Source of the DNA: a virus
DNA length: 40,689 nucleotides
Direction: 5' to 3' (one strand)
IMG/VR virus record: IMGVR_UViG_3300027111_000004
Coordinates: 1-40,689 of that record
Shown here: piece by piece, positions 4,205 through 38,758 of the stretch
How positions within the stretch are numbered: the first letter of the stretch is position 1
Layout of the letters: each line of letters begins with the position of its first letter
Position numbers and translations under genes: made by a program
Notes under the pieces: generated by a model
The model's database searches: none
The model's input: the letters and a program-made list of their open reading frames with translations, nothing else
What the model was told of the DNA's origin: nothing

Positions 4205-4220
4205 GCGTTACGCGTAACGC
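4205..4220. repeat. Dispersed palindrome copy (CGTTAC-N1-2-GTAACG family)
   Basis: GCGTTACGCGTAACGC is a perfect 16-bp palindrome. It is intergenic (gpX/gpD), 12 bp upstream of a terminator hairpin. Confidence 0.9.
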
Positions 4221-4231
4221 TTCAATCCTTG

Positions 4232-4256
4232 GCCCGCCCTGTGCGGGCTTTCTTTT
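4232..4256 (+). terminator. Rho-independent terminator-like hairpin
   Basis: GCCCGC-cctgt-GCGGGC followed by TTTCTTTT. Confidence 0.6.
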
Positions 4257-4267
4257 GGAAAAAATCC

Positions 4268-5317
4268 ATGACCCCCCGATTCCGCATTGTTGCCGATGGC
4301 AACGACATCACGGCGCTGCTGAACGATCGCCTGATTCAGTTGAGTGTCACCGACAAAGTCGGGATGGAGTCCGACGAATTCGAGCTGCGTATTGATGACC
4401 GTGACGGGCTGGTGGTACTGCCTTCCCGGGGCGCGGGGATCGAGGTCTACCTGGGCTATCTGGAGACGTCGCTGGCCCGGTTGGGCCGCTATGTGGTTGA
4501 TGAAATCACGGTATCCGGTCCGCCGGATACGATCGTGATCACGGGCAAGGCCAGCGACATGCGCGGCAGCGGCAAAACCATTCGCAGCGGTAGTTGGGAA
4601 AACGTGCCGTTGTCCAAGATCGTCGCCGACGTCGCTGCCCGCAACGGCTGGGCGCCGGTGTGTCCGGTCAACACGAAAGTAGTGCGTGCCGATCAGCTCA
4701 GCGAGTCCGATTTTAATTTCATCACGCGGCTGGCCAAGCAGTACGACTGCACGGCCAAGGTCGCCGACGGCAAGCTGTTGGTGATGCCGCGTCAGGGCGG
4801 GCAGAGTGCGAGCGGCAAGGCCTTTGCGCCGATCGTGATCACGCGTGAAGACGTCAGCCGCTGGCAGTTCCACCTTGGCGATCGCAGCACCCACAAGGCG
4901 GTCGGGGCCAAGCATCAGGACAAGAAGACCGGCAAGCTTGCCGTGGTGTCGCTGGAGAACGACGACGCCCCGGACGGCCTGCCGGCGGTGCATACCGATC
5001 GCCATATTCACCCGAACAAGACAGCAGCCGAGGCGGCGGCGAAAGCCCGCTTGGCTGCGTTCAACCGGTCCACCGCCGGCGTGCGGCTGGAAATGGCCGG
5101 GCGTACAGATCTGTTTGCCGAACGATCGATCATCGCCCAGGGCTTCAAGGTTGGACTTGATGGCGAGTATCTGGCCGAGTCGGTGCAGCAGACCTACACC
5201 CAAGCCGGTTGGACCACCGTTGTCGAGTGCAACGGCGGCAAGAATGGCAAGGCCAAAGCCAAAGGCAAGAAGGGCAAAAAGCCCGCCAAGCCGGTCAAGG
5301 TCGTGAGCCTCAAATAG
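4268..5317 (+). CDS. Tail protein, P2 gpD-like (late control D family)
   Basis: MTPRFRIVADGNDITALLNDRLIQLSVTDKVGMESDEFELRIDDRDG is the typical gpD N-terminus. ATG 4268 follows the terminator. The C-terminus is a lysine-rich tail. Confidence 0.85.
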   Translation: MTPRFRIVADGNDITALLNDRLIQLSVTDKVGMESDEFELRIDDRDGLVVLPSRGAGIEVYLGYLETSLARLGRYVVDEITVSGPPDTIVITGKASDMRGSGKTIRSGSWENVPLSKIVADVAARNGWAPVCPVNTKVVRADQLSESDFNFITRLAKQYDCTAKVADGKLLVMPRQGGQSASGKAFAPIVITREDVSRWQFHLGDRSTHKAVGAKHQDKKTGKLAVVSLENDDAPDGLPAVHTDRHIHPNKTAAEAAAKARLAAFNRSTAGVRLEMAGRTDLFAERSIIAQGFKVGLDGEYLAESVQQTYTQAGWTTVVECNGGKNGKAKAKGKKGKKPAKPVKVVSLK

Positions 5318-6034: not shown

Positions 6035-6564
6035 TCCCGGCACCGGTGCGACCCTGGGCGATCGCCCTGGTACTGCTGTCGATCGCCGGCGCCGGAGCTG
6101 CCGGCAGTTGGGCGATACAGGACTGGCGTTACGGTAACGCGCTAGCCGAGCAGGCCCGCCAGTCCGCCGACGTGGCCCGGGCGGCCGCCGAGGCGACGGT
6201 GGGCGCGTTGGTGATCGAGCAGGACAAGCGCCTGGCGCTGGAGCAGCGCCTGAAAGACAACGACCAAACCCATTACAAGGATCTATCCGATGCGCAAACA
6301 GCTCAGCAACGCCTGTCTGATCGCCTTGCCACTGCTGATGTCCGGCTGTCAGTCCTACTCAACGCCGGCAGCGCTGCCGGCCGTTGTGACGGGGTGTCAG
6401 CCCCTGCCAGCGCCGGCGGCGTGGTTCATGGCCCCGCAAGAGCCGAACTTGACCCAGCGCATGCTCGGCGAATTATCGGCATCACCGACGCCGGCGATCG
6501 CGGATTGATCGCCTTGCAGGCGTGCCAGGGTTACGTCAGGGCGTTGTCCGTCGGGCGCAATTAA
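6016..6564 (+). CDS. Rz: i-spanin (Rz-like)
   Basis: N-terminal TM segment (WAIALVLLSIAGAGAAGSWAI) followed by a coiled-coil-like region. It overlaps the endolysin stop and contains the nested lipoprotein ORF. Confidence 0.75.
   Translation: MSILDLIPAPVRPWAIALVLLSIAGAGAAGSWAIQDWRYGNALAEQARQSADVARAAAEATVGALVIEQDKRLALEQRLKDNDQTHYKDLSDAQTAQQRLSDRLATADVRLSVLLNAGSAAGRCDGVSAPASAGGVVHGPARAELDPAHARRIIGITDAGDRGLIALQACQGYVRALSVGRN
6126..6140. repeat. Dispersed palindrome copy
   Basis: GCGTTAC-G-GTAACGC with 7-bp arms. It lies inside the i-spanin gene (codons W-R-Y-G-N-A). Confidence 0.9.
6290..6508 (+). CDS. Rz1: o-spanin (Rz1-like lipoprotein), fully nested in the +1 frame of the i-spanin gene
   Basis: Signal peptide with lipobox (MRKQLSNACLIALPLLMSG-C) and a Pro-rich mature part. 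This is the classic embedded Rz/Rz1 arrangement. Confidence 0.8.
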   Translation: MRKQLSNACLIALPLLMSGCQSYSTPAALPAVVTGCQPLPAPAAWFMAPQEPNLTQRMLGELSASPTPAIAD

Positions 6565-7050: not shown

Positions 7051-7257
7051 TTTCTGGTAATCAGCACAAATTGGCTTCAAACCGGGCAGGTAGAAGTCTA
7101 TTAGCTGATCACCGCATAAGCAAGCCCTAGCCATTAGGGATGTTTGGATGATCGGCGAAGCCTCAGCAGAAGGCCGCCCCGGCATTATGCGGGGGCGTAT
7201 AGATTTGCAGCCCCCGGCTCGCGTCCAGCGGCTGGCCTTGGCTGTTGGTGGCGCGCT

Positions 7258-9264: not shown

Positions 9265-9678
9265 ATGTTTGCTTTGTTGCGGCGTGACGGGTCACGCGAG
9301 GAATTCGACGCGCCGGATATGTGGGAGGCGATGCGCGCAGCGCTGCGTCTGGACGCCGCTCAACTGGAAGTGCCGGGTGATCCCCCGCGTTCGATGACTG
9401 CTGACCAAGTGCGCCAGGAGCTGGCTCTGAATCGCCCCGGGTTGTTTGATGCTTTTGCGCCTGGGTGGATGCCTCCTACGGTTGAGGAATTCCGCGAGCT
9501 GTTGCGTGTGACCGGGTTGCCGGCAAGTGCGGCCGGGCTGCTGGTAGGTGTTTCACAGAAAAAGATCCGCAAGTGGGCCGGTGGCGAGGGGGACGTGCCT
9601 TACGCTGTCTGGCGCCTGCTGAGCATTTATGCCGGGCTGGCCAAGCCGTCAGTCCGTGGTGACGAATTAACGAAATAA
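9265..9678 (+). CDS. Hypothetical protein with a C-terminal XRE-type helix-turn-helix (137 aa)
   Basis: GGAGG RBS. EFRELLRVTGLPASAAGLLVGVSQKKIRKWAGGEGDVPYAVWRLL is HTH-like. The last codons (E-L-T-K-stop) are encoded by array 3. Confidence 0.6.
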   Translation: MFALLRRDGSREEFDAPDMWEAMRAALRLDAAQLEVPGDPPRSMTADQVRQELALNRPGLFDAFAPGWMPPTVEEFRELLRVTGLPASAAGLLVGVSQKKIRKWAGGEGDVPYAVWRLLSIYAGLAKPSVRGDELTK

Positions 9679-9977: not shown

Positions 9978-11345
9978 ATGGCCCGCAAGAAACCCGCTGC
10001 ACACCTCGCCCGTGACGAACGGCCGGAATTCCTCGCGCTGGTGGCTGAGCTGGCCGACGTGCCCGCCGAACAGTTCCCGGCGCTGGCCAAGCAGGCCGCC
10101 GAGCAGTACCACGATGCGGTACTGGCGGGCCACGTCGACGCGCTCGATCGGGCCGAAGATGCCTATACCGCACTGGTCTACAAGCTCAACGGTGACAGCC
10201 TTCGCGGTTGCAAGGCCGATGCCGACAGCGCCGGTCATGTGCTGGCCCGTGCGGTCGCGGCGCAGCCGGGGCAGGTGCCGGGCTGGGGGCAGGCGGGCGA
10301 GTTCCTGCTGGAGGTCGACGGTTTGCGGGTGTGGGTGGTGGTGCCCCATCACATGCTGGGTAATCACCGGTTTTGTGACTTTCGCGCGGTGGATCTGGAC
10401 AAGCCGTTTGTCTCCGAAACCGGATACCGGTCCGTGACCCTGACCGCGACGTCGAGCATTGGCGAAACCGTGGATCAGGCTGCGCGCCGCGAGGTGCTGG
10501 AGTTGATCCAGGCGGCGGGCAAACTCAAAACGATCGAGGGCGAGTATGTCGATCGCCGGGGTGCAGACAAGCGCCCGGCATGGCTGGTCGACGCATTGGC
10601 CGGCGTGCGCGCTGACGGTCAGTTGGCCATGTTCGGTGATGCCCCTAAAGACCCGAATGCCAAGGCGCCCTTGACCAACGCCCAGCGGCAGAAAGCCTTT
10701 CGCGAGCGCAAGCGCGCCGAAAAGGAGGCTGCCAAAGAGGAAGGGCTGGTGTCGTTGTCGCTGGGGCGTGATGACCTCAGCTATATGTGGTGGGCCATGA
10801 GCGTGTTTCTGACTGCGCGGCGCGACCTTGAACACCTCAAGCAACCGTATGTGCGCGAGCGGCTGGCCAAGATTTTTGGCGGGTTGCCTTTCTGGACGCC
10901 CGATGCGATCGAAAAGCTGGATCAGGATCAAGGGATTTTGAACGGCGAAAAGCGCGTGGAATCAGAGCGCAAGCGCGGTTGGGAGGAATACGAGAAGTAC
11001 CGCAAGATCGCCGCCGCCCAGGGCAAGGAGCTGGCCGAGGCGCGGGCGGAAATCGAGCGCCTGAAAAACGGCTTGCAGGCGATAGCGGCCGAAGTCAGTG
11101 GCACGCCGGCGCCGATCGGGGCGGCAGTATCGGCCGCCGTGCCCAAGGCTGACGAGGTGGCCACGTTGCGCCGTCAGGTCGCGGCGCTGGAGCGTGAAAA
11201 CGCCCTGCTCGAAAGCGAGCGCAACAAGGCGCACATGGCGATCGGTACATGGGAGCAGCGTCTGCGCGCGGCCGGCCAGTCGACCGACTACCGTGCGTTG
11301 CCGGGCGAACCGGGTCACGTTACCGTAACGCCGGACAAGGATTGA
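9978..11345 (+). CDS. Hypothetical protein (455 aa) with a basic segment and a C-terminal coiled coil
   Basis: AAGGAG RBS 9 nt before ATG 9978. It has a basic motif LTNAQRQKAFRERKRAEKEAAKEE and heptad-like ELAEARAEIERLKNGL...LRRQVAALERENALLESE. Confidence 0.7.
   Translation: MARKKPAAHLARDERPEFLALVAELADVPAEQFPALAKQAAEQYHDAVLAGHVDALDRAEDAYTALVYKLNGDSLRGCKADADSAGHVLARAVAAQPGQVPGWGQAGEFLLEVDGLRVWVVVPHHMLGNHRFCDFRAVDLDKPFVSETGYRSVTLTATSSIGETVDQAARREVLELIQAAGKLKTIEGEYVDRRGADKRPAWLVDALAGVRADGQLAMFGDAPKDPNAKAPLTNAQRQKAFRERKRAEKEAAKEEGLVSLSLGRDDLSYMWWAMSVFLTARRDLEHLKQPYVRERLAKIFGGLPFWTPDAIEKLDQDQGILNGEKRVESERKRGWEEYEKYRKIAAAQGKELAEARAEIERLKNGLQAIAAEVSGTPAPIGAAVSAAVPKADEVATLRRQVAALERENALLESERNKAHMAIGTWEQRLRAAGQSTDYRALPGEPGHVTVTPDKD
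11318..11330. repeat. Dispersed palindrome copy
   Basis: CGTTAC-C-GTAACG inside the 3' end of 9978-11345 (codons H-V-T-V-T-P). Confidence 0.9.
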
Positions 11346-13142: not shown

Positions 13143-13156
13143 AAGGAATCCCCACC

Positions 13157-13381: not shown

Positions 13382-13395
13382 CGTTACCCGTAACG
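13382..13395. repeat. Dispersed palindrome copy
   Basis: CGTTAC-CC-GTAACG, intergenic between paralog genes 2 and 3. Confidence 0.9.
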
Positions 13396-13643: not shown

Positions 13644-13659
13644 GCGTTACCAATAACGC
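13644..13659. repeat. Dispersed palindrome copy (one arm mismatch)
   Basis: GCGTTAC-CA-ATAACGC, just after the stop of 13421-13639. Confidence 0.8.
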
Positions 13660-14045: not shown

Positions 14046-14095
14046 CGGCGCGTGACGCGTCACAACCTACGAAAGAAAGGAGATTCAACGCGATG
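14046..14095 (+). repeat. Repeated leader element, copy A (24-nt exact core with palindrome GTGACGCGTCAC, plus a shared RBS block)
   Basis: CGGCGCGTGACGCGTCACAACCTA ... AAGGAGATTCA.CGC.ATG. The same element recurs at 14479-14527. Confidence 0.9.
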
Positions 14096-14488
14096 AAAAA
14101 CAGCCACGGCCTCGACGTCGATTACTTCAGCCGCAAGATGGAGCGCATGCTGAACGGCGCGGGCAGCTACACCCGCGAGGAATGGGCACGCGAGTGCGCG
14201 CGCATGGCCAAGGTCGCCGATCCGGCGGTGCTGCTGGAGGCCGAGTTTGTCGGCGAGCCGGCACCGTTTGCCGGCAAGGTCGTCAGCAAGTTACAGCGGT
14301 TTTGGGCCTGCGCCGAAGACAACCAGGGCGCCGATATCGGCCGCCACTGGTTCGACCTGCTGACGCGGTTGGGTTTGTTGAACCGCGTGCAACGCAGCCC
14401 GGCGCTGTGGGAGCTGTCGCAGCAAGGCGAGGATCTGCTGGAGGCCGAGCGGGTGCGTGCGGTTCTTCTGGAAAAGTCCGGCGCGTGA
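14093..14488 (+). CDS. Hypothetical protein (131 aa)
   Basis: AAGGAG RBS within repeated leader A. No motif recognised. Confidence 0.65.
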   Translation: MKNSHGLDVDYFSRKMERMLNGAGSYTREEWARECARMAKVADPAVLLEAEFVGEPAPFAGKVVSKLQRFWACAEDNQGADIGRHWFDLLTRLGLLNRVQRSPALWELSQQGEDLLEAERVRAVLLEKSGA

Positions 14489-14527
14489 CGCGTCACAACC
14501 TATCGAGATAAGGAGATTCACCGCATG
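14479..14527 (+). repeat. Repeated leader element, copy B
   Basis: Has the same 24-nt core and the AAGGAGATTCA block as 14046-14095. The palindrome GTGACGCGTCAC (14485-14496) contains the TGA stop of the upstream gene. Confidence 0.9.
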
Positions 14528-15171: not shown

Positions 15172-15593
15172 GCGGCCAAGCGAAGGTGTGCACGGCCACG
15201 AACGTGACCCTGTACGTCGACGGAGAAGAGTTGCCGTCGGTGGCCATCGGTTCGGCGCCGATCGGTCATGCTCCGCTGTTTACCGGCGTGATCGAGCTGG
15301 GCGGCCGGCTGTCGGCGGTGACGCTCGGGGAGGCTGACCCACTGTTGCCGGCGGTCGCGCGCTGGGTCGCGGCGCGGCCCTTCACCGGCCCCGGGGCAGT
15401 TCGGCGGCGGTTCGGCGTCGGCCTGCATCGAGCGCGCCGGCTGCTGACGGTGCTGGTCGAGCGGCGGCTGTTGCGTGGCCACTGGTGCCGGGTGGCGTCG
15501 ATCGCCTTTGTGGCCGGCAGTGAGGAATGGGCCTTTCGCATCTACCGGGTGCAGCCGTGGGCATGGGCGGATCTGCAAGGCGGTGCGTTATGA
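15168..15593 (+). CDS. Hypothetical protein with an FtsK-gamma-like winged-helix segment (141 aa)
   Basis: ATGA overlap. DPLLPAVARWVAARPFTGPGAVRRRFGVGLHRARRLLTVLVERRLL parallels the FtsK gamma domain (DPLFDQAVQFV....[30 protein letters not shown]). Confidence 0.55.
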   Translation: MSGQAKVCTATNVTLYVDGEELPSVAIGSAPIGHAPLFTGVIELGGRLSAVTLGEADPLLPAVARWVAARPFTGPGAVRRRFGVGLHRARRLLTVLVERRLLRGHWCRVASIAFVAGSEEWAFRIYRVQPWAWADLQGGAL

Positions 15594-15600
15594 GTAACGC
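15585..15600. repeat. Dispersed palindrome copy (one arm mismatch)
   Basis: GCGTTAT-GA-GTAACGC. It spans the ATGA stop/start overlap at 15590-15593. Confidence 0.8.
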
Positions 15601-15838: not shown

Positions 15839-16146
15839 CGTTGCCGTTAGGGCCAGAGTTTGAACAGGATCTGCGCGACCTGCGTGCGCTGTCGCCCGAG
15901 GTCGCGGAGCTGGCCGAACGGATCGCCCAGGCAGTGCGGCCGGAGGCGACCGAGTCCGGCGCCTCGGTGTTGACCTGGGCGTTGTTTGAGCTGATGGACG
16001 CACTGGCCCAGGACTGGCCGAACAGCGTGCGCGTGACCTGTTCGTGGTTGGGGGATTTGCGCGTGTTGGGTGCGCTGACGAGCGCCGAGGTGGAGGGCTT
16101 CAAAGTCGAAGTGCGCCGCCTCGGCGGCAATTCGGCGTTACTGTAA
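15835..16146 (+). CDS. Hypothetical protein (103 aa)
   Basis: ATGA overlap with the upstream gene. It is the last gene of the translationally coupled block. Confidence 0.55.
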   Translation: MTLPLGPEFEQDLRDLRALSPEVAELAERIAQAVRPEATESGASVLTWALFELMDALAQDWPNSVRVTCSWLGDLRVLGALTSAEVEGFKVEVRRLGGNSALL

Positions 16147-16149
16147 CGC
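16135..16149. repeat. Dispersed palindrome copy
   Basis: GCGTTAC-T-GTAACGC with 7-bp arms. It contains the TAA stop of 15835-16146. Confidence 0.9.
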
Positions 16150-20173: not shown

Positions 20174-20726
20174 CCTGCCGTCCGGATTCTCCACGTTGCC
20201 GATCGTTCTAAAGGTCGAGCAGCGATTTGGTGTTGCCGGGTTCGCCCGCTTGATCAAGCTGCTGGAGCAGTTCGCCGCCAGTCCCTCGCGTGCCGCCGGC
20301 GTCGTCGAGCTGGACGGCAGCGATTGGCGCGAGGCGTTGCAGATAGGCCCGCTTGAACTAAGCGTGTTCATGACTTACCTCGCGGCCGACGGCTTTCTGT
20401 GCCTCGATCAGCCGCCCGAACCAAACTCCCCGTTACGCGTAACGCTTTCGGACTTCCAAGCATTCTTGCCGGCTTCGCCGCTGCCCCGCGTCGCCAATGA
20501 ATGGCGACTGTGGTTCATCGCTGAGGCGCAAATGCCTGAAGACCAAGGCAAAGACCCTTATATCCAATCTTTGTTCCGTCGTTGGTGTGCTTCCAATACG
20601 ACGGTCGAGGAAATGAGAGCCGCCATAGAGCTGGCCAGCCAGGAGGGGGCGGACAAGTCGCCGGCCACCCTGCATAACTATTTGATGACTGTGCGCAAAG
20701 AAAAATTAGAAGTGGCGCGCCGCTGA
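20160..20726 (+). CDS. Hypothetical protein, possibly a replication organiser (weak DUF4373/DnaD-like N-terminus)
   Basis: Overlaps the cro stop. FSTLPIVLKVEQRFGVAGFARLIKLLEQFA resembles the Lin1244-type N-terminal motif. The function call is weak. Confidence 0.6.
   Translation: MSGLSLPSGFSTLPIVLKVEQRFGVAGFARLIKLLEQFAASPSRAAGVVELDGSDWREALQIGPLELSVFMTYLAADGFLCLDQPPEPNSPLRVTLSDFQAFLPASPLPRVANEWRLWFIAEAQMPEDQGKDPYIQSLFRRWCASNTTVEEMRAAIELASQEGADKSPATLHNYLMTVRKEKLEVARR
20431..20444. repeat. Dispersed palindrome copy
   Basis: CGTTACGCGTAACG is a perfect 14-bp palindrome inside 20160-20726 (codons P-L-R-V-T-L). Confidence 0.9.
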
Positions 20727-23571: not shown

Positions 23572-24018
23572 ATGACTGACGTGCCGACGTTGCCAGCGGT
23601 GGTGGGGGGCTTGGACGTGGCGACCGATCGCGTCGAAGGCCCGTTGATTGATCTTGTGACGCGTCACAGCGCTGAGGAAAGCGGCGAGAGTGCGGCGGCG
23701 CAGCGCAAGCGGGAGCAACGGGAACGCGACGCGGCGGCCGGGGTTGTGGAGTTGCGCGCCAGAATTGGGCCGATAGAGGCGGCGCAATTGGCTGAGGCCC
23801 TTGTATTCCGGGCCTCTGGAGCCGAACCGTATACCGCAACCGAATACGTGTTGACGCTGATCCGGCGTGACGCGGATTTGATCAAACAGCAGCGTGGAGT
23901 TGTTGAAAGCAAAAGCTGCGCACACTGCCGAAAGCCTTTGCCACGGGGCTGCGGCGGGGTTTGGGCGGGGGAATTGCCGTGCGTTTTGCCGCAACTTGAA
24001 CGGGCGCTGTGGCTGTGA
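23572..24018 (+). CDS. Hypothetical protein (148 aa)
   Basis: AAGAGGA RBS in an A/T-rich spacer. It has a basic AAAQRKREQRERDAAA segment and a C-terminal CAHC...C cluster. Confidence 0.55.
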   Translation: MTDVPTLPAVVGGLDVATDRVEGPLIDLVTRHSAEESGESAAAQRKREQRERDAAAGVVELRARIGPIEAAQLAEALVFRASGAEPYTATEYVLTLIRRDADLIKQQRGVVESKSCAHCRKPLPRGCGGVWAGELPCVLPQLERALWL

Positions 24019-24567: not shown

Positions 24568-24692
24568 TGTTCCGGCCGCTGCGGCTGGTTCTGGTTGTTC
24601 TGGTGGCGTTCGCCGTTTCGGCGCATGTCGAGTGTCGGGAATCTGAGGCCTGCAAGCTGCCGGCCGTTACGCATAACGAGGGGTTCGCATGA
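24567..24692 (+). CDS. Unlisted 41-codon ORF encoding a signal-peptide/TM-like peptide, coupled at both ends
   Basis: MFRPLRLVLVVLVAFAVSAHVECRESEACKLPAVTHNEGFA. Its ATG overlaps the holin TGA (TGATG) and its TGA overlaps the next ATG (ATGA). Confidence 0.45.
   Translation: MFRPLRLVLVVLVAFAVSAHVECRESEACKLPAVTHNEGFA
24665..24678. repeat. Dispersed palindrome copy (one arm mismatch)
   Basis: CGTTAC-GC-ATAACG inside the 41-codon ORF. Confidence 0.8.
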
Positions 24693-26564: not shown

Positions 26565-28605
26565 GAGTGTCCGCAAGGGGCTGGAAGGGCTTTACAAAGA
26601 GCCGCCGCTGACCGCGACGGAATGGGCAGACAAACACTTTTATCTGTCGTCCGAATCGTCCTACCAAGAGGGCAAGTGGACCACCGCCCCGTTTCAAGTC
26701 GCGATCTTGAACGCGATGGGCAACGACCTGATCCGTGAAGTCAACGTGCTGAAGTCGGCCCGGGTCGGCTATACGAAAATGCTGGTAGCCAACATGGGCT
26801 ACAAGATCCAGCACAAGAAACGCAACGTCCTGACATGGTGCCCGACTGACGGCGATGCTGACGGGATGATGAAGCGGCACATCGAAACGATGATCCGCGA
26901 CGTTCCGGTGGTGAAGGCCTTGGCGCCTTGGCTCGGCGTGAAGCATCGAGATAACACGCTCGATGAAAAGCGTTTCGATAACGCGAAAATGTTGTGGTGC
27001 TTGGGCGGAACGGCGGCGAAGAATTACCGCGAGAAAAGCCCGGACGAAGTGATCTACGATGAGCTGTCGAAGTTCGACGCGGACATTGAAGGCGAGGGCG
27101 CCCCGACCATCTTGGGCGACAAGCGTCTGGAAGGCGCCACGTTCAAGAAGTCGATTCGCGGATCCACCCCGACGACCATTGTGCCCGCTGCTGAAGGCGA
27201 GGAAACGACGGGCGAGGGCTGTCAGATCACGCGGGCGGCGGATGATTCCCCGCACCTGCTGCGCTTCAACATCAAGTGCCCGCACTGCCAGACGGAACAG
27301 CATCTGAAGTGGGGCGACCCCGAAACGCCGTTCGGCATCAAGTGGCTGCTCAACGACCTCAAGCAGGTCGAAAAGGCGTGGTACGCGTGCGAGTCAGGAC
27401 ACGGTTGCACGTTCGAATATCACGAAATGATCGCGGCGTCGGCCAGTGGTCGCTACATCTGTGAGCGTTCCGGGATCTGGACGCGTGACGGCATGGAATG
27501 GTTTACCAGTGCGGACAAGCCCATGCAGGCGCCGCGATCGGTGACGTTCCATATCTGGACGGTGTATTCCGAGTTTGTCACCTGGGCGGAAGTCGTCAGC
27601 GAGTGGATTAAGGTCAAGAAGGACCGGGGCAAGCTCAAGACCTTTATCAACACCACGTTGGGCGAGGCTTGGGAGGAAGATCAGGGCGAGCAGTTGGAAT
27701 GGCAGCAGCTACAGGCGCGCCGCGAGGTATACGCCGAGGTGCCGCCGTGGGTGGTCGCCATCTTCGGCGGCATCGACACGCAGGACGATCGTTACGAGGG
27801 TCGGTTTTGGGGGTTCGGTGCTGGTGAGGAAGCCTGGTTAATTCACAAGTTCATCCTGACGGGTGATCCGGCCAGCGTCGAGCTGCGCAAGAAGGTCGGA
27901 CTTGAGCTGAAAAAGCGATTCATTCGTGAGGACGGAACAGTCCTCACGCTTGAACGAGCCTGCTGGGACCAAGGCGGGCACTACTCGGACGAAGTGCGAG
28001 AGGAAAGTATCAAGCACGGCGTTAACTGGATCATTCCTGTTTTCGGTGCGTCGACCTACGGCAAGCCGATCGCGACGTGGCCCCGCACTAAAACCAAGGT
28101 CAAAGGCGGCCGTGTGTATCTGGTCGAGGTCGGGACGGATAACGCGAAAGAGCTGATTTATAACCGTCTGACTATTCAACCGGACACCTCAGGCGCTCGC
28201 GTTCCAGGGTGCGTTCATTTGCCAGCAAACGACCTGTTGTGCGGTGAGGACGAATTACGACAACTCACGGCCGAGAGGCGCAAGTGGGTGATCGTCAAGC
28301 ATCGGCGCGTGCAGCGCTGGGACGCAGGCGGTCGCCGCAACGAAGCGCTTGATTGCTTTGTGTATGCGCTCGCCGCGTTACGCATAACGCAGCAGCGGTT
28401 CGGTATGAACCTCGATTTACTCGCGCAGCAGTTGCCGTCCGGCATCTGGCATGTGCCGGACGTTTCCAGTCCACAAGATCAGGCGCCCGAAACGGAGCCG
28501 GTGCCGATTGTGGCGCCGGGTCCCGTCGACGTGCCCAAACCATCACCAGCGCCGCCCCGAGAACCAGAGGTGTGGCTCGAAACGGAGAACAACGGATGGC
28601 TATAA
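26548..28605 (+). CDS. Terminase large subunit, lambda gpA-like
   Basis: MRALIESVRKGLEGLYKEPPLTATEWADKHFYLSSESS parallels the lambda gpA N-terminus (VRAGLRSLFRPEPQTAVEWADANYYL). The start could instead be 26527. Confidence 0.9.
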   Translation: MRALIESVRKGLEGLYKEPPLTATEWADKHFYLSSESSYQEGKWTTAPFQVAILNAMGNDLIREVNVLKSARVGYTKMLVANMGYKIQHKKRNVLTWCPTDGDADGMMKRHIETMIRDVPVVKALAPWLGVKHRDNTLDEKRFDNAKMLWCLGGTAAKNYREKSPDEVIYDELSKFDADIEGEGAPTILGDKRLEGATFKKSIRGSTPTTIVPAAEGEETTGEGCQITRAADDSPHLLRFNIKCPHCQTEQHLKWGDPETPFGIKWLLNDLKQVEKAWYACESGHGCTFEYHEMIAASASGRYICERSGIWTRDGMEWFTSADKPMQAPRSVTFHIWTVYSEFVTWAEVVSEWIKVKKDRGKLKTFINTTLGEAWEEDQGEQLEWQQLQARREVYAEVPPWVVAIFGGIDTQDDRYEGRFWGFGAGEEAWLIHKFILTGDPASVELRKKVGLELKKRFIREDGTVLTLERACWDQGGHYSDEVREESIKHGVNWIIPVFGASTYGKPIATWPRTKTKVKGGRVYLVEVGTDNAKELIYNRLTIQPDTSGARVPGCVHLPANDLLCGEDELRQLTAERRKWVIVKHRRVQRWDAGGRRNEALDCFVYALAALRITQQRFGMNLDLLAQQLPSGIWHVPDVSSPQDQAPETEPVPIVAPGPVDVPKPSPAPPREPEVWLETENNGWL
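28375..28390. repeat. Dispersed palindrome copy (one arm mismatch)
   Basis: GCGTTAC-GC-ATAACGC inside the terminase large subunit gene (codons A-L-R-I-T-Q). Confidence 0.8.
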
Positions 28606-30331: not shown

Positions 30332-32381
30332 ACGGCCGCTGATGATGCCTCGGGCGTCGGTGGCTGCATCGGTTACGGCGGTAATTTCCGCCGCGAATCA
30401 GCCGGTTGAAAGCTGGTATTCGATGCGGGCCATGGCGCGCGGTAGCGTCGAGATTCTGCTGTATGACGAGATCGGCGCGTGGGGCATTACTGCCAAGCAG
30501 TTCGCGCAGGATCTGGCGGCATGCGGTGACGTGTCACAGATCAATTTGCGCATTCATTCGCCCGGTGGCGACGTGTTCGCCGGCATGGCGATTTACAACA
30601 CGCTCAAGGCGCATCCGGCTCGCGTCGACGTCTATATCGACGGCTTGGCCGCTTCGATGGCCAGCGTTATCGCGATGGCGGGTGACAAGGTGTACATGCC
30701 CACCAACGCCATGATGATGATCCATAAGCCTTGGGGTGCCCAAGGCGGGGATGCGGAAGCCATGCGTCAGTACGCCGATCTACTCGACAAGGTCGAGGGC
30801 ACGCTGGTGCAGGCGTATGCCAGCAAAACGGGGAAAACCCCGGAAGAAATTCACGCACTGCTCAAGGCAGAAACGTGGATGGATGGTAGCGAAGCGGTGG
30901 CAGCCGGTTTCGCTGATCAGTTGATTGACCCCCTGGTGGCTGCCGCACAACTCAATTCGAAACGCATGCAGGAGTTTGAACACATGCCGGCAGCAGCCTA
31001 TAGCAACCTGATGAACCCGCGTAACCAAGTGCCGGCCCCGGCACCTGCCCCCGCGCCTGCACCGGCGCCGAACAACGCCGCGACAACTGAGCAGATCCGC
31101 GCTCAGATCATCGCGGAGGAAAACGATCGCCGTACCGGTATCACCAACGCTTTCGGTGGGTTTGCCTCCGGCCACCCTGAACTGCTGGCGGCCTGCATCG
31201 GTGACATGGGCTGCACCGTTGAAAGTGCCCGGGCGCAACTGCTGGCCAAGCTGGGCGAGCAGACAACCCCGTCCAACCTGCCGGGCCTGCATGGCCATAT
31301 TTCCAACGGCAATCTGGTCGGTGATTCGGTGCGCGCCTCGCTGGAGGCGCGAATTGGTATCGCCGAAATTGAGGCCAGCAACGGTCTCAATCACATGCGC
31401 CTGAACGAGCTGGCCCGGGCCTCGCTGACCGAGCGCGGCATTCTCGTGGCGACCCTGAACCCGATGCAGATGGTCGGGCTGGCCTTCACTCACGGTTCTA
31501 GCGACTTCGGTCAGATCCTGCTCGACATCGCCGGTAAATCGGTTCTGTCGGGCTGGGAAGAGGCGCCGGAGACGTTCCAGCTCTGGACGAAGAAAGGCCA
31601 GTTGAGCGACTTTAAAACGTCGTCGCGTGTTGGCCTGGGCGAGTTCCCGAGCTTGCGCGAAGTGCGCCCGGGCGCGGAATACAAACACATTACCCTGAGC
31701 GATCGCGGCGAGCCGATCACGCTGGCCACCTACGGCGAACTGTTCTCGATCACCCGTCAGGCGATCATCAACGACGACTTGTCGCTGTTGAGCGACGTGC
31801 CTTACAAGATGGGTCAAGCGGCGCGCGCGACCATCGGTGATCTGGTTTATGCGGTGCTGACCAGTCCGCCAAAAATGCGCGACGGCAAGTCGTTGTTTGA
31901 TGCGTCGCGCAAGAACAACGCGGCCGGCCCGGGATCCGAACTGTCCATTGCCAGCCTGATCGCCGGCAAGACCGCCATGGCCTCGCAAAAAACGCAGGTC
32001 GAGGGTGGCAAAGCGCGCACTCTGAACATTCGCCCGGCCTACGTGCTGACCCCGGTCGCCCTGGAAGATCGCGCTAACCAGTTAATCAACTCGGCGTCGG
32101 TGCCGGGCGCTGATGTCAATTCCGGCATCGTCAACCCGATCCGTGGTTTTGCCAAAGTGATTGGTGAACCGCGTCTGGACGACAACTCTGCGTCGCAGTG
32201 GTACATGGCGGCCAAGCAAGGCAGCGACACCATTGAAGTCGCGTACCTCAACGGTATCGACACCCCGTATGTCGAGCAGCAGAACGGCTTTACCGTGGAC
32301 GGTGTGGCGAGCAAGGTTCGCATTGACGCCGGTGTGGCACCGGTCGACTTCCGTGGTCTGTACAGCGCCGCCGGGAAGTAA
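30297..32381 (+). CDS. Fusion of ClpP-family prohead protease, scaffold-like linker and major capsid protein (694 aa; start uncertain)
   Basis: The N-terminal third has ClpP motifs (INLRIHSPGGDVFAGMAIYNTL, IDGLAASMASVIAMAG, MMMIHKPW). Then comes a (PA)7 linker and helical region. The C-terminal ~330 aa is capsid-like (gpT/HK97-fold type). There is no separate capsid ORF. Confidence 0.8.
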   Translation: MQTFQARKNKRKRPLMMPRASVAASVTAVISAANQPVESWYSMRAMARGSVEILLYDEIGAWGITAKQFAQDLAACGDVSQINLRIHSPGGDVFAGMAIYNTLKAHPARVDVYIDGLAASMASVIAMAGDKVYMPTNAMMMIHKPWGAQGGDAEAMRQYADLLDKVEGTLVQAYASKTGKTPEEIHALLKAETWMDGSEAVAAGFADQLIDPLVAAAQLNSKRMQEFEHMPAAAYSNLMNPRNQVPAPAPAPAPAPAPNNAATTEQIRAQIIAEENDRRTGITNAFGGFASGHPELLAACIGDMGCTVESARAQLLAKLGEQTTPSNLPGLHGHISNGNLVGDSVRASLEARIGIAEIEASNGLNHMRLNELARASLTERGILVATLNPMQMVGLAFTHGSSDFGQILLDIAGKSVLSGWEEAPETFQLWTKKGQLSDFKTSSRVGLGEFPSLREVRPGAEYKHITLSDRGEPITLATYGELFSITRQAIINDDLSLLSDVPYKMGQAARATIGDLVYAVLTSPPKMRDGKSLFDASRKNNAAGPGSELSIASLIAGKTAMASQKTQVEGGKARTLNIRPAYVLTPVALEDRANQLINSASVPGADVNSGIVNPIRGFAKVIGEPRLDDNSASQWYMAAKQGSDTIEVAYLNGIDTPYVEQQNGFTVDGVASKVRIDAGVAPVDFRGLYSAAGK

Positions 32382-33633: not shown

Positions 33634-34205
33634 GTTATTCCGGGGGGGAGCATGACCGCATGATTGCGGCCATGGTGATGCCCTGTGCGGTCGTTGGGGT
33701 TGATCTGGCGGCCGGAGCGGTTCGGGTATCGAATGGCGAGTGGACGAGCGCCTGGGTGCGCTGGCACAGCCTCGCGGCCGGCAAGGCGCGGAACTGGCGA
33801 TCGCCGAGCCTGGGCGAGCAGGGGGTTTTGATCAGTCCCAGCGGGCAGGCCGGCATCGGAACGTTTATCCCGGGGCTGTACGGCAACGCCGGCGCCCAGC
33901 CCGACAACCGCGATCACGTCGAGGTCTGGCGCTTTGATGATGGGGGTTCGCTGGTCTACGACTGGAAGGCAAGCAGCTACACGATCACCGTGCCCAGCGG
34001 GACCGTGACAATCAAAGTCGGCGGTACCGAACTGGTCGTTACGGATAACGCCGTGACGGTGAAGTCTGGCACGGTTGACATTGAGGCTACGGTGAACATC
34101 AAAGGGCCGGTCAACATCGACGGGCCGTTACACGTAACGGGCAACATCGACGGCGACGCGAACATCATGGCCGCCGGCAATAGCGACAATCACCACAAGC
34201 ATTGA
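33630..34205 (+). CDS. Baseplate central spike, P2 gpV-like (191 aa, GTG start)
   Basis: [35 protein letters not shown]...[11 protein letters not shown] is the gpV OB-fold N-terminus. The C-terminus is repetitive beta-helix-like (VTIKVGG...VTVKSG...[21 protein letters not shown]). Confidence 0.85.
34037..34050. repeat. Dispersed palindrome copy (one arm mismatch)
   Basis: CGTTAC-GG-ATAACG inside gpV. Confidence 0.8.
34125..34140. repeat. Dispersed palindrome copy
   Basis: CCGTTAC-AC-GTAACGG with 7-bp arms, inside gpV (codons P-L-H-V-T-G). Confidence 0.9.
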
Positions 34206-34808: not shown

Positions 34809-35692
34809 GTATCTTGGATCTGTCCGCGCTGCCGGCGCCGGACGTGCTGGAGCCGCTGGACTTCGAAGCAACCTATGAAGACAGCTTGAGCATGTTTCGC
34901 GCGAGCATGGGCGACAACTGGACGGCCAACCTTGAATCAGATCCGGTGGTCAAGCTGCTGGAAGTCGGGGCCTATAACAAGCTCGGCAACCGTGCCCGGG
35001 TCAACGACGGCGCCAAGGCGCTGCTGCTGGCCTACGCGACCGGAACTGACCTCGATCAGCTTGGCGGCAACGTCAATCTGCCGCGCCTGGTGATTCAGGC
35101 CGAGGACCTGACGGCGACGCCGCCAGTGCCTGAAGTTTTGGAAGAACACGACGCGTACCGGGAACGCATTCAACTGGCTTATGAGGGCCTGACCACGGCG
35201 GGGCCGCGAAACAGCTACATTCTGCACACGCGTAACGCTTCGGGTCTGGTGGCCGACGCCTCGGCGGAAAGCCCGAAGCCGTGCCACGTTACGGTAACGG
35301 TGCTGAGCGCTGAGGGGAAAGGCGAAGCCAGTGCCGAGCTATTGGACATTGTCCGGTTGGCTCTGGATGACGAGGACACCCGCCCGGTCGGCGATCGGGT
35401 CACGGTGCAAAGCGCCGAAATCCTTGAATACCGGATCGACGCCATCCTGCACATGAGCAGCGCTGGCCCGGAGGGGGACGCCAGTTTGACCGAGGCCAAA
35501 CGACGCCTTGCCGCGTGGATCAACCCGCGCAAACGGCTGGGGGTTGAGGTGGCGCGCTCGGCTGTGGACGCTCAGTTGCACATTGCCGGCGTTTCCCGGG
35601 TCGAGTTGGTGGGCTGGCAGGATCTGGCGCCTACCAAGGCGCAGGCGGCGTGGTGCGCCGGTTACGAAGTGACGATGGCGGGGGCAACATGA
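34805..35692 (+). CDS. Baseplate protein, P2 gpJ-like (295 aa)
   Basis: ATGA overlap with gpW. The N-terminus LSALPAPDVLEPLDFEATYE and overall length fit gpJ. Confidence 0.85.
   Translation: MSILDLSALPAPDVLEPLDFEATYEDSLSMFRASMGDNWTANLESDPVVKLLEVGAYNKLGNRARVNDGAKALLLAYATGTDLDQLGGNVNLPRLVIQAEDLTATPPVPEVLEEHDAYRERIQLAYEGLTTAGPRNSYILHTRNASGLVADASAESPKPCHVTVTVLSAEGKGEASAELLDIVRLALDDEDTRPVGDRVTVQSAEILEYRIDAILHMSSAGPEGDASLTEAKRRLAAWINPRKRLGVEVARSAVDAQLHIAGVSRVELVGWQDLAPTKAQAAWCAGYEVTMAGAT
35287..35299. repeat. Dispersed palindrome copy
   Basis: CGTTAC-G-GTAACG inside gpJ (codons H-V-T-V-T-V). Confidence 0.9.
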
Positions 35693-36291: not shown

Positions 36292-38286
36292 ATGATTGAT
36301 GCGAACTCAAAGTTTTTCGCGATCCTGACGGACGTGGGGGCGGCCAAGCTGGCGAACGCCAATGTTTTGGGCGTGCCCTGGAACATCACGGAAATGGGCT
36401 TGGGCGATGCCAACGACACCGAGCCGCAGCCCAGCGCCAAGCAAACCAAACTGATCAACGAATGGCGCCGCCGTCCGCTGAATCAACTGCGCATCGACCC
36501 GGTCAACCCGGCGGTGATTATTGCCGAGCAGGTTATCCCAGCCGACGAGGGCGGGCGCTGGATTCGTGAAGTCGGTCTGTATGACGCTGACGGGGATCTG
36601 GTGGCGGTGGCCAACTGCGCGCCAAGCTTCAAGCCGGTACTGTCGCAGGGGTCGGGCCGCACGCAAGTTGTGCGGATGAACCTGATTGTTTCCAGCACGG
36701 CGCAGATCAGTCTCAAGATTGACCCGTCGGTGGTGCTGGCGACGCGTGAGTATGTCGATTCGCGCATTCTGGAAGAGCTGAGCAAGCTCGACATTAAGCA
36801 GTCAGTGCGCGCGGCGACCACGGCCAATATCGCCCTGGTCGGTTTGCAGGTCGTCGACGGTGTTTCGCTGAATGCCGGCGATCGCGTGCTGGTGAAGAAT
36901 CAGGCGGCCGCCAAGGATAACGGCCCGTATGTGGTGGCTGTGGGTGCCTGGGCGCGCGCCAAGGATGCCGACAACAACGCGAAGGTCACGCCGAATCTGA
37001 CGGTGGCGGTCGAGGTGGGTGCGACGCAGGCCGACACGATCTGGCAACTGGTGACCGATGGCCCGATTGTCGTGGGCACTACGGCGCTCGCGTTCAAGGA
37101 CATTACAGACGGCTTTGCCCGGCTGTTGTCGCCAAGCTTTGCAGGCAATCCCACGGCCCCGACGCCGGCGCAATTCGACAGCAGCAAGTCGCTCGCCACG
37201 GCGGAGTTTGTAAAGCGTAGTGGTGTCGAGTTCTCTGGCTTCACCACGAACGCCGCGAACTTGGCTCTGGCGGCCATGCACGTCGGTGGCCTTCACAGCT
37301 TTTCCGGTGCGGCGCAGATCCAAGCCACTTTGCCGCCGACGGCAGGTGTCGCGCAGGGCGCTACCATTACGCTTGTTTGTGCTGGCAATGGTGGGTTGAA
37401 AATTGTCCCGGCCGGTGCTGACGTCGTGTACACCTCGACCGGTGTGGCTGGTCCGCTGGTACTCGCCCTGGGCGACACGGCGGAATTCATCCGGCTTGAA
37501 AACCAGTGGCGTCTAATCGGGGGAACGGCGGCGCTCGCCTTCGCCGGTGTGATGGCGGGGCCAAACTTCACGACCCGGCCGCAGTTTGATGATTCCAAGG
37601 CTCTGGCTACTACGGAATTTGTGAGGCGAGCGCTTGGCAATTGCAAGGGGTTCGTTTCGGTTTCTGCCAACACCGTTTTGACACCGGCGCAGGTGGGTAG
37701 CTATGTCACATCGAATGTGGGGGTGGGTGCGGTCAACGTAGGGTTGCCGTTGCTCAGCTCGGTCGCGGCCGGATCGATGTTCACTATCTCCCATTCCTCG
37801 ACATCAATGACATCGTTTGCGGTGGCTATATCTGGCACCGATGCGCTTGTGTTTGAAGGTCTGGAGGGTAGCGCCGCACCTTATGTCATGGCGGTGGGTG
37901 AGACGTTGACTGTCGTATCCACTGGAGTTATTTGGAAAATTGTTGCCAGCAATGGTGGAAGGTTTCTGAAGCATGGCGGCGGGTTTGCTGCTGGGGCCGG
38001 CGTTCAGGGCTATCAGAAGCTGCCGAGCGGAACAATCATCCAGCGGGGCAGTGGCGCGACGGTTGATGGTGTGGGGACGGTGACATTTCCTGTCACTTTT
38101 CCTACCGCTTGCCGTCAGGTTCTGGTGGTGGAGTCGAGCGCTGCGAACTGGGTGGGGTCGAACTTTACGGTTTACGGCGTCGGTGCCAAGACGCAGTCAG
38201 GGGTCACAATCCGATCAATGAACTGGAACGGAAGCGCCTGGGCAGGGAAAAACGGCAACTTCGACTACATCGCAATTGGGGAATGA
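36292..38286 (+). CDS. Tail fibre protein, P2 gpH-like N-terminus with a divergent C-terminal receptor-binding part (664 aa)
   Basis: The N-terminus KFFAILTDVGAAKLANA...ITEMGLGD...IREVGLYDADGDLVAVAN is the conserved fibre attachment domain. Two collar-type motifs occur (PAQFDSSKSLATAEFVKR and RPQFDDSKALATTEFVRR). Confidence 0.85.
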   Translation: MIDANSKFFAILTDVGAAKLANANVLGVPWNITEMGLGDANDTEPQPSAKQTKLINEWRRRPLNQLRIDPVNPAVIIAEQVIPADEGGRWIREVGLYDADGDLVAVANCAPSFKPVLSQGSGRTQVVRMNLIVSSTAQISLKIDPSVVLATREYVDSRILEELSKLDIKQSVRAATTANIALVGLQVVDGVSLNAGDRVLVKNQAAAKDNGPYVVAVGAWARAKDADNNAKVTPNLTVAVEVGATQADTIWQLVTDGPIVVGTTALAFKDITDGFARLLSPSFAGNPTAPTPAQFDSSKSLATAEFVKRSGVEFSGFTTNAANLALAAMHVGGLHSFSGAAQIQATLPPTAGVAQGATITLVCAGNGGLKIVPAGADVVYTSTGVAGPLVLALGDTAEFIRLENQWRLIGGTAALAFAGVMAGPNFTTRPQFDDSKALATTEFVRRALGNCKGFVSVSANTVLTPAQVGSYVTSNVGVGAVNVGLPLLSSVAAGSMFTISHSSTSMTSFAVAISGTDALVFEGLEGSAAPYVMAVGETLTVVSTGVIWKIVASNGGRFLKHGGGFAAGAGVQGYQKLPSGTIIQRGSGATVDGVGTVTFPVTFPTACRQVLVVESSAANWVGSNFTVYGVGAKTQSGVTIRSMNWNGSAWAGKNGNFDYIAIGE

Positions 38287-38714
38287 TTATGTTGTTTAGT
38301 CCGAGTACGTGCAGTTTTTATGATCCTGCCATCAATGCCGTTTTGCCTTCTGATGCGGTTGAAATCGATGATGATTTTTATGCCGAGCTTCTGCGTGGTA
38401 ACTCTCGCGGGCAGATCATCACGTCAGATAAGCATGGTTACCCCTGCCTTGTTTCACCGGCAGAGCCATCGCCTGATTATTTGGCGGAGCTGGAACGTAC
38501 ATGGCGTAACGGTCAGCTTTTGTTGACGGATCCGCTGGTGTCCCGTCACCGCGACGAGATCGAGGCGGGCGACGCAACATCGCTCACGGCCGACCAGTAC
38601 ACGGAGTTGCAGGCTTACCGCCGGCAGTTGCGCGACTGGCCACAAGGCGAGCAATTCCCGTTGATCGATCATCGCCCGATCACGCCGCCCTGGCTGATCG
38701 AGCAAACCCAATAA
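38283..38714 (+). CDS. Tail fibre assembly chaperone, gpG-like (143 aa)
   Basis: ATGA overlap with the fibre gene. LTADQYTELQAYRRQLRDWPQGEQFP...RPITPPWL is the typical C-terminal motif of tail fibre assembly proteins. Confidence 0.75.
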   Translation: MIMLFSPSTCSFYDPAINAVLPSDAVEIDDDFYAELLRGNSRGQIITSDKHGYPCLVSPAEPSPDYLAELERTWRNGQLLLTDPLVSRHRDEIEAGDATSLTADQYTELQAYRRQLRDWPQGEQFPLIDHRPITPPWLIEQTQ

Positions 38715-38745
38715 ACGCCCCGCACTGACGGGGCGTTTTCTTTTC
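38714..38745 (+). terminator. Rho-independent terminator
   Basis: AACGCCCCG-cactga-CGGGGCGTT followed by TTCTTTTCC. Confidence 0.7.
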
Positions 38746-38758
38746 CGTTACGCGTAAC
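38746..38758. repeat. Dispersed palindrome copy
   Basis: CGTTAC-GC-GTAAC (GTTACGCGTAAC is a perfect 12-bp palindrome). It lies between two hairpins upstream of the sheath gene. Confidence 0.85.

Follow-up and report, generated by a model that had tools for sequence, protein, structure and literature searches.

The question raised by IMG/VR record IMGVR_UViG_3300027111_000004 is why a short palindrome, CGTTAC-N1-2-GTAACG, lies scattered within and between the genes of a virus. The whole record, 40,689 nucleotides (nt) in length, was analysed and is referred to here as the window. It is a circular phage-plasmid of the Pseudomonas fluorescens group, since the element is found as separate contigs of ~40 kb in two Pseudomonas whole-genome assemblies and a closed relative of the same architecture, pPL-38ph, is annotated as a circular 38,377-bp plasmid of P. 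lundensis. The element encodes a lambda-type head module (large terminase with GpA-type domains, lambda-family portal, protease/capsid fusion), P2-like tail genes and lysis genes, together with a CI-type repressor, a tyrosine recombinase, a ParA ATPase with its small adaptor, and a LuxR/GerE-type protein. A preliminary description of this DNA had seen in the palindrome the binding site of a dimeric DNA-binding protein, and this remains the best reading. Judging from sequence comparisons, we consider it somewhat probable (about 0.55) that the palindromes are dispersed double-stranded docking sites for two proteins encoded by the element itself, each with a short basic alpha-helix.

Two palindrome families under selection at the DNA level

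The palindromes belong to two families, labelled A (GTTAC-N1-2-GTAAC type) and B (GTGAC-N1-2-GTCAC type). A pattern search of the window rendered 15 A copies, all in the plus-strand listing, of which nine are perfect (five with a spacer of one nt and four with a spacer of two) and six carry one mismatch (Table 1). The number of copies, the split between perfect and mismatched ones and the variable spacer of 1-2 nt are those of the preliminary description, several of whose coordinates were 1 nt too low, and A arms were found at no other spacer between 0 and 11 in the window. Exact A copies with the half-sites in reversed order are absent from the window; the one that had been reported at 22111 is GTAACGCGTTAA, an imperfect reversed pair with zero spacer that is probably due to chance. 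Because the innermost arm base is the one affected in five of the six mismatched copies, the core of the A site can be written as CGTTAY-N1-2-RTAACG. The closest pairs of sites are 89 and 263 bp apart, and the window holds single sites only, with no run of at least three tandem repeats.

Family B, which had not been noticed earlier, surfaced in an unbiased count of short palindromes that was prompted by relatives without the A motif. GTGAC-N2-GTCAC occurs five times in the window, where 0.03 copies would be expected, and there is one further copy of a B-type variant. Among the 16 possible GTxAC..GTyAC combinations only T..A and G..C are present in the window, the other 14 giving no match at all, so that mixed sites are absent.

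Dinucleotide shuffles of the window gave expectations of 0.03 and 0.07 A copies for the two spacings (~0.1 in total) and a maximum of 1. In a codon-preserving control, in which synonymous codons were permuted within each gene 1000 times, the eight A sites that lie wholly inside genes compare with a mean of 0.35 and a maximum of 3; the other seven of the 15 are not wholly within any gene of our gene list. Relatives of the element, fetched through the terminase, the GerE-like protein and tail protein D, carry both motifs at 2-4 sites per 10 kb, and their A sites occupy orthologous positions, where they are built from synonymous or rare codons. Thus, the peptide AVTRN of the small terminase subunit is coded GTT ACG CGT AAC in more than ten lineages, whereas a sister lineage, with a large terminase 81% identical, codes it GTG ACG CGT AAT and is almost devoid of sites. 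In the large terminase, the peptide ALRITQ is coded with the rare codons TTA and ATA, in place of which site-less relatives have CTG CGC ATC AGT.

In 83.6 kb of host DNA, made up of four P. fluorescens-group chromosomal loci, no A site was found, as against ~31 expected at the density of the window, and there were two B-like matches only, both degenerate. The DNA upstream of the integrase gene in relatives had also been taken as site-free host flank, but this was withdrawn, since it shows no sign of a transfer RNA gene or attB and the contigs continue as phage DNA.

These counts bear on a group of explanations in which the palindrome would be a host-wide repeat, a site for a host factor (for uptake, of the repetitive extragenic palindromic (REP) kind, or for a nucleoid protein), a by-product of codons or peptides, or a restriction-modification motif. 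A by-product would agree with the codon-preserving expectation (0.35) being higher than the dinucleotide one, which is because peptides such as VTRN are common, and with the tail fibres of unrelated phages, where GNVTGNVTGN repeats make the same DNA for coding reasons. It is contradicted, however, by the excess of intragenic sites, by the A sites that are not wholly in a gene, and by the relatives that write the same peptide with other synonymous codons and without a site. A host-wide repeat does not agree with the empty host sample, nor do the sites have the traits of REP or other hairpin elements, namely a stable stem-loop, host-wide occurrence and a mostly intergenic location, as their folding energies are weak and 12 of the 21 sites are intragenic. 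The variable spacer is unlike a type II restriction site, and no methyltransferase was detected in the window. Host-wide and coding-artefact explanations are excluded, and the group as a whole is highly improbable.

The A and B palindromes are kept by selection on the DNA itself and not on the coding sequence, because of the excess over the codon-preserving shuffle, the codon choice for AVTRN and the rare TTA and ATA codons at the large terminase site, and the motif is specific to the element. Selection at the DNA level, as it had been asserted in the preliminary description, is therefore borne out.

Identity with origin iterons and covariation with a basic helix

No feature class that would explain the palindrome had been recognised in the preliminary description, and a literature search with the exact palindrome sequences retrieved unrelated primers only. 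A scan of viral contigs with the exact 14-mer, which returned mostly relatives, also gave contigs in which A palindromes follow one another head to tail every 12 bp (GTTACGCGTAAC GTTAYGCRTAAC etc.). These tandem A arrays are located inside open reading frames (ORFs) that adjoin genes for the DnaB helicase. Pfam Phage_rep_org_N is matched by two of these ORFs, and others make up a very large replisome-organiser family ('MAGDWIKMR'). The same palindromes are, then, tandem iterons inside the replisome-organiser genes of many phages, and a known feature class does exist. Origins located inside the initiator gene are a known arrangement, for instance in lambda O and SPP1 G38P. Dedicated scans rendered tandem A units in 78 stretches (63 distinct local contexts) and tandem B units in 16, B arrays being present in 16 contigs; about half of the tandem-A hits are tail-fibre GNVTGNVTGN repeats, coding-driven false positives that were left out of the residue table described below. 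Tail-fibre-like proteins with long repeats of this kind, which yield tandem GTTACNGGTAAC DNA for coding reasons, were seen in L337, L338, L341, L345, L349 and other viral contigs.

A basic motif, R-[QVK]-x-x-X-R-[EQD]-[KR], precedes the array by a few codons in the organiser-type ORFs, many of which have Asn three residues upstream of the motif. The likeness to the origin iterons of phages (lambda O/ori-lambda, SPP1 G38P/oriL, Phage_rep_org_N) includes the identical unit, GTTAC-NN-GTAAC or GTGAC-NN-GTCAC, its dyad symmetry, and a location inside the gene of a protein with the same basic helix or within a few codons of that gene. The window differs in that its sites are single and scattered over 40 kb, with no tandem array beside an AT-rich region, and in that its helix protein has an N-terminal domain of the KlcB type and not an organiser domain. 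In 1.17 Mb around 78 organiser homologues, A sites were almost exclusively within the rep gene. Since ordinary organiser phages keep their sites there, scattering sets this phage-plasmid lineage apart and, less markedly, the plasmid pA506.

Two window proteins carry the basic-helix signature N-x3-Q-x2-[F/Y/H]-R-x-R or a variant of it. One is a 455-residue protein in which the motif is PLTNAQRQKAFRERKR, with Phe before the conserved Arg; in its alignment (A5), Asn N234 and Gln Q238 are nearly invariant and R237 and R242 invariant. Over its first 230 residues it is homologous to the KlcB protein (kilC operon) of IncP-1 plasmids such as RK2 and R751: residues 22-221 are 39-41% identical by tblastn to annotated klcB genes, and its close homologues are named 'KlcB family protein' by NCBI. 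The other is a 148-residue protein with Gln before the conserved Arg. One A site (11318) and one B site (23656) lie in the genes of these two proteins, respectively, the other 19 being elsewhere. AlphaFold models place both basic motifs in alpha-helices, and for the KlcB-like protein they predict a globular N-terminal domain that a disordered linker joins to the basic helix, with long helices towards the C-terminus. The model of the KlcB domain (9978-10600) is confident, with a predicted local distance difference test (pLDDT) score of 81-91. Fold searches of both proteins against the PDB gave nothing significant, the weak top matches of the KlcB domain being the PUR-alpha and Whirly single-strand-binding folds (E ~0.5), and the modelled fold of the 148-residue protein was not assignable in this analysis.

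The residue before the conserved Arg (X) covaries with the type of site. It is F, Y or H in 30 of 30 tabulated proteins associated with A arrays or A-rich genomes, and E, E, Q, E, K, L, K and, in one case, H in the proteins with B arrays (~1 exception in 8-9); with counts entered by hand as 30/0 vs 1/8, Fisher's test gives p = 1.5e-7. Within the family of the 148-residue protein, the genes of members with RKREQRER themselves contain a B site, as the codons of VT[GR]H, a member with IRQERYR has an A site, GTT ACG GGT AAC, and the locus of a member with IRQERHR includes three A sites but none of the B type. The KlcB-like proteins, in turn, have SN.xRQxx[F/H/Y]R in genomes with A sites and SGAERQKRRR in relatives with B sites only. 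The chemistry would be sensible, an aromatic or hydrophobic side chain facing the thymine methyl group and Lys, Arg or Gln facing guanine. A sites would most likely be read by a dimer of the KlcB-family protein and B sites by the 148-residue protein.

The plasmid pA506, which is conjugative and not a phage, has six A sites (0.16 expected) and no B site, and encodes a full-length KlcB-like protein with SNAERQRRHRQR. Only four window ORFs have homologues in it, namely the KlcB-like one, 7144-8151, 11350-12000 and a UmuD-like one; in the comparison of pA506 with all window ORFs, no GerE-like protein and no homologue of 23572-24018 were found, and its RepB shows no similarity to window ORF 16186-16518. 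On the other hand, pPL-38ph, with A and B sites, lacks homologues of 7144-8151 and 11350-12000 and shows no UmuD-like match, so that, of the four, it shares the KlcB-like protein alone, which is therefore the sole protein common to the three types of replicon with A sites. In both pA506 (L482 15376-17733) and pPL-38ph (L238 3162-5410) the KlcB-like gene is directly followed by a hicA-hicB toxin-antitoxin pair, which the window does not have.

The same comparisons concern the possibility that the sites are read by some other regulator of the element. The LuxR/GerE-type protein (18277-18693), one of the readers put forward in the preliminary description, is encoded in every motif-bearing relative whose region was covered, within the maintenance operon together with parAB. 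However, L110 and L117, with neither A nor B sites, also encode homologues of 46-49% identity; proteins ~46% identical occur both with A and B sites and with B sites only; and pA506 has A sites and no such homologue. This protein is therefore disfavoured only, whereas nothing links the other readers then proposed (the FtsK-gamma-like protein, the product of 9265-9678 and the Cys-rich proteins) to the sites, and they are patchy among relatives. An element-encoded reader other than the two helix proteins is, altogether, unlikely.

Alternatively, the sites could work by folding into hairpins or cruciforms in single-stranded DNA or RNA, for instance as signals for processing, priming or recombination, the T:A to G:C change between A and B being then a compensation that preserves the stem. 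This would agree with the two families differing by exactly one complementary pair, with no mixed sites in the window, with a spacer variable in length and sequence, and with an asymmetry of the inner-pair variants on the sense strand: in the window and its relatives, in window orientation, GTTAC..ATAAC was counted in 34 unique contexts vs five for GTTAT..GTAAC, counts that are non-independent, many being supplied by the terminase site. The stem, however, would be of just 5-6 bp, and the inner pair would have to open for the loop to form. The folding energies range from -2.5 to -6.7 kcal/mol and most of the z-scores exceed -1.5; at two sites the minimum-energy fold differs from the motif hairpin; and neither an Rfam match nor a consistent link to terminators was found. 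Moreover, all other stem positions are invariant, the same units form contiguous 12-bp arrays, as is typical of double-stranded iterons, a protein residue covaries with the variable base, and two specific readers would account just as well for the lack of mixed sites. The hairpin or cruciform, already offered as an alternative in the preliminary description, is thus energetically weak, and we regard it as rather improbable.

The helix in question recalls that of the Pap1/YAP basic leucine zipper (bZIP) proteins, whose half-site is likewise GTTAC|GTAAC and which tolerate two half-site spacings differing by 1 bp. The helix signature of Pap1 (NRAAQRAFRKRK), N-x3-Q-x2-F-R-x-R-K, is also present in the window protein, where NAQRQKAFRERK has the bZIP basic-region pattern (N-x7-R, with Q at +4 and F at +7), and the TGAC half-sites of the cyclic AMP response element (CRE) type parallel family B. 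Pap1 recognises AGGTTACGTAACC, with its half-sites arranged over either 7 or 8 bp (PMC3111461).

The only match of the window helix in a phmmer search of the PDB was the Pap1 bZIP (1GD2, sharing N..Q..FR.RK), at a non-significant E of 3.6; a profile of the basic helix retrieved from the PDB ribosomal L18 tails only and no bZIP; and Pfam gave no bZIP match to the window helix protein at E <= 10. In the KlcB-like model no leucine zipper continues the basic helix (after helix 234-254 comes a loop, and residue 318 is where the long helices begin), and the half-sites are separated by 1-2 bp more than those of any bZIP site, a spacer of 0 being never seen. For these reasons the bZIP resemblance is to be taken as 'works like' and not as 'is a member', and it is probably convergent. 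Several observations weigh against docking by these two helix proteins, beginning with the lack of any significant bZIP match. RP4 KlcB has been described as having no predicted DNA-binding ability (PMC2665229). The sets used for covariation are phylogenetically non-independent and were tabulated by eye from printed sequences, and there are exceptions to the rule: L176 has an A array with Ala in place of Asn, L328 has B arrays with His, L117 has His and no sites, and a P. aeruginosa plasmid with the SGAERQKRRR variant has two A and two B sites. In relatives whose early-gene module and integrase are different, 2-3 A sites persist in the tail genes, and no KlcB-like gene was seen in the DNA covered. 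Finally, the dispersal of the sites needs an explanation of its own, at which we can arrive only by inference.

Placement of the sites in the element

Nine of the 21 sites are within -70 to +5 of a gene start, a zone that represents 10.5% of the genome (p = 1.4e-4), and the remaining 12 are intragenic, including sites in terminase, integrase, capsid, baseplate and tail genes (Table 1). Promoter and terminator scans of the window showed no consistent association with the sites. All of them are outside 16149-20430, in the remaining 36-kb stretch, which is mostly transcribed rightward; the leftward cI-gerE-parAB maintenance operon contains none, a gap that is not statistically remarkable.

Table 1. 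Palindromic sites of the window and the two proteins proposed to read them
Feature	Position	Strand	Sequence	Location and remarks
A, perfect, N2	4206..4219		CGTTACGCGTAACG	22 nt upstream of gpD-like tail gene; kept in many tail modules
A, perfect, N1	6127..6139		CGTTACGGTAACG	Within spanin gene
A, perfect, N1	11318..11330			3' end of KlcB-family gene; next start 31 nt on
A, perfect, N2	13382..13395			Intergenic, after second of three small paralogous genes
A, one mismatch	13645..13658		CGTTACCAATAACG	Intergenic
A, one mismatch	15586..15599		CGTTATGAGTAACG	Overlaps stop codon and next ATG
A, perfect, N1	16136..16148			On stop codon of last gene of rightward accessory block
A, perfect, N2	20431..20444			Middle of ORF 20160-20726 (position after cro); kept in relatives
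A, perfect, N1	22368..22380			Integrase N-terminal coding region; kept in relatives
A, one mismatch	24665..24678			23 nt upstream of ORF 24689
A, one mismatch	28376..28389			Terminase large subunit, in ALRITQ codons
A, one mismatch	34037..34050			Baseplate gpV-like gene
A, perfect, N2	34126..34139			Baseplate gpV-like gene
A, perfect, N1	35287..35299			gpJ-like gene
A, one mismatch	38746..38759			Intergenic, 62 nt upstream of tail sheath gene
B	9284..9295		GTGACGGGTCAC	19 nt into ORF 9265-9678
B	14052..14063		GTGACGCGTCAC	41 nt upstream of ORF 14093; part of 24-nt direct repeat
B	14485..14496			Second copy of 24-nt repeat; 40 nt upstream of ORF 14525
B	23656..23667			Inside gene 23572-24018 (codons V-T-R-H), just upstream of basic-helix coding
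B	30526..30537			Protease/capsid fusion gene; B site at corresponding offset from terL in many relatives
B-type variant	40291..40301		GTGATCGTCAC	Tail tube gene
KlcB-family protein, 455 aa, proposed A-site reader	9978..11345	+	NAQRQKAFRERKR	Basic helix coded at 10677-10715
148-aa protein (phrog_536), proposed B-site reader	23572..24018	+	AAAQRKREQRERD	Basic helix coded at 23692-23730

Some sites may be associated with movable gene content. ORF 14093-14488 is patchy among relatives and is flanked by an exact 24-nt direct repeat, cggcgcGTGACGCGTCACaaccta, at 14046-14069 and 14479-14502; it may be a cassette carried together with its B site. In 12813-13639 there are three tandem small paralogous genes (IDGP..G..F.C motif), with an A site after the second and the third, and in relatives A sites recur every ~250-330 bp, consistent with the same arrangement of paralogues (L087: 10692/10978/11266). 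It might be argued from this that the sites are short stretches of homology, or recombination boundaries, for swapping cassettes between related elements, as many of them are at gene junctions of the variable accessory block, the repeat around the patchy ORF contains a B site and a site follows the small tandem paralogues. However, 13-14 bp are short for homologous exchange, half of the sites are at fixed positions in conserved structural genes, and the covariation with a protein residue would be unexplained. Cassette swapping as the reason for the sites is accordingly very doubtful, and more likely a side effect of binding sites travelling with cassettes.

Two relatives, L140 (8378-8756) and L314 (13614-14104), have eight tandem 52-53-bp repeats, each holding CGTTACGCGTAACG; the array of L140 is non-coding and has a Dam-type methylase gene on one side and umuDC on the other.

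Apart from the palindromes, the window contains other repeats. Arrays of an 8-bp repeat (TTCGTTAW / WTTCGTTA and its complement) were found at 17492-17531, 18174-18205, 18247-18275, 8784-8831 and 9182-9221. They flank the parA promoter (TTGATA-17-TATACT, 18244-18216, minus strand), lie between parA and the small adaptor gene, and bracket ORF 8888-9202; they are probably the operator or the centromere of the partition adaptor. This adaptor is a 95-residue protein with no family match, while its counterpart in relative L402 belongs to PF21432 56B_RHH, of the ribbon-helix-helix (RHH) type, and no ParB-family helix-turn-helix (HTH) protein is encoded.

An element that is a plasmid-prophage with ParA and a small RHH-type ParB might be expected to use the palindromes themselves as dispersed centromeres, as in N15 or RK2, and the par repeat TTCGTTAW does share the pentamer CGTTA with the A site. 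The par repeats, however, vary independently of the A and B content: TTCGTTAW is found in the window, L081 and L085, TTAGCTAA in L103 (A and B sites) and also in L105 and L111 (B sites only), and a GATATC-type repeat in pPL-38ph. ParA is only 28-47% identical across relatives with the same A motif, and ParB weakly similar at best. Since the par repeats change in relatives while the motif stays, the ParB centromere reading was rejected as extremely improbable.

Three dyads (TTACAC-N5-GTGTAA, TACACT-TTA-AGTGTA), presumably CI/Cro operators, are present at 19017-19033, 19829-19843 and 19879-19895. Two of them are in the cI-cro intergenic region and the other is just downstream of the cI terminator, where it fronts the operon formed by a 94-residue ORF, gerE and parAB. 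As CI has its own, different dyads, CI operators were rejected as the identity of the A and B sites.

Some further features of the element were observed. The region 16150-17200, of ~1 kb, has a low coding signal and contains an 18-nt sequence, CTCACAGGAAGCATTGAC, that is exactly repeated (at 16599 and 16905), as well as two strong hairpins of the terminator type, at 16536-16564 and 17114-17180. An Rfam search of the region gave no match, and it may be the plasmid replicon or a small-RNA region. In the LuxR/GerE-type protein, encoded on the minus strand by a gene that is immediately upstream of parA in most relatives, the HTH is followed by a hydrophobic stretch that is conserved (LGVLxPxALCxxLxxI), and there is a basic tail; these features suggest a regulator anchored in the membrane. 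The protein encoded by 21420-21845 weakly matches the PA0613 family (R/F-pyocin regulatory cluster of P. aeruginosa) and sigma-70 region 4, and may be a late-gene activator.

Comparison with dispersed operators and biological meaning

Taking the palindromes again as docking sites for the two helix proteins, their nearest plasmid counterparts are the operators of the IncP-1 plasmids RK2/RP4 (the 13-bp KorB palindrome OB, with 12 dispersed copies, and the KorA and KorC operators), which are also short palindromes around the plasmid, in promoters and in and between genes, and which are read by plasmid-encoded dimers, as proposed here for the window. RP4 KlcB shares with KorA and TrbA the module that contacts KorB (PMC2665229; PMC3597684). 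The window differs in having no KorB or other ParB-HTH protein, its adaptor being small, RHH-type and provided with 8-bp repeats of its own; moreover, the spacer of its sites varies by 1 nt, there are two sister specificities, and the replicon is a phage-plasmid.

The stoperators of cluster A mycobacteriophages lack symmetry, have an orientation that follows transcription, and are bound by the immunity repressor as a monomer. Like the sites of the window (21, with nine near starts), they are short, number ~20-30 genome-wide and are in many cases located at gene boundaries, whereas the window sites are palindromic and its CI-type repressor has operators of its own, TTACAC-N5-GTGTAA, the cI-cro region containing only dyads of this type and TACACT-TTA-AGTGTA and no A or B site. 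Stoperators and their reader are described to co-evolve, and roadblock silencing of the lytic genome would be a plausible shared logic (PMC9283540; PMC6550527).

The contrast between the repeat arrays of L140 and L314 and the single sites of the window is the same as that between the centromere of F, sopC (12 clustered copies of 43 bp), and that of N15. In N15 the SopB sites are dispersed. In the window, by difference, the partition repeats are other sequences and do not covary with the palindromes. We regard the feature as a variant of iterons and of dispersed plasmid and phage operators, with what may be a new DNA-reading module.

According to the mechanism that we favour, the palindromes that are iterons in other phages have become dispersed in this lineage: ~21 single sites are spread along a long unit of rightward transcription, many of them 20-60 nt before a start codon, and selection on synonymous codons keeps them where they are. 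Their preferred role would be that of a genome-wide regulatory or silencing and copy-control network, in the manner of the IncP-1 KorA/KorB operators or of phage stoperators, although they could alternatively serve as extra sites for loading or titrating an initiator. More tentatively, and with less confidence than in the docking itself, it can be imagined that bacterial mobile elements possess a compact bZIP-like module, N-x3-Q-x2-X-R-x-R, in which X sets the middle base of GT(T/G)AC (aromatic or His for T; Lys, Arg, Gln or Glu for G) and which has been grafted on organisers, on KlcB and on a small protein; two such readers would have turned former iterons into ~20 self-marks that silence, tether or count copies in plasmid-state lysogeny.

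If this were true, a function would be at hand for the KlcB family, homologues of which are present on hundreds of conjugative plasmids (343 PLSDB records) and whose RP4 member has been listed as of 'function unknown' since the 1990s. The widespread low-complexity stretch 'NVT.NVT' of phage replisome organisers would be the footprint of iterons, and, with a code of one residue for one base, the sequence alone could be enough to predict where phages and plasmids have their origins and which regulons they possess. The biology of phage-plasmid maintenance is little known outside P1 and N15, and the ~20 selected sites of this element point to a genome-wide layer of control.

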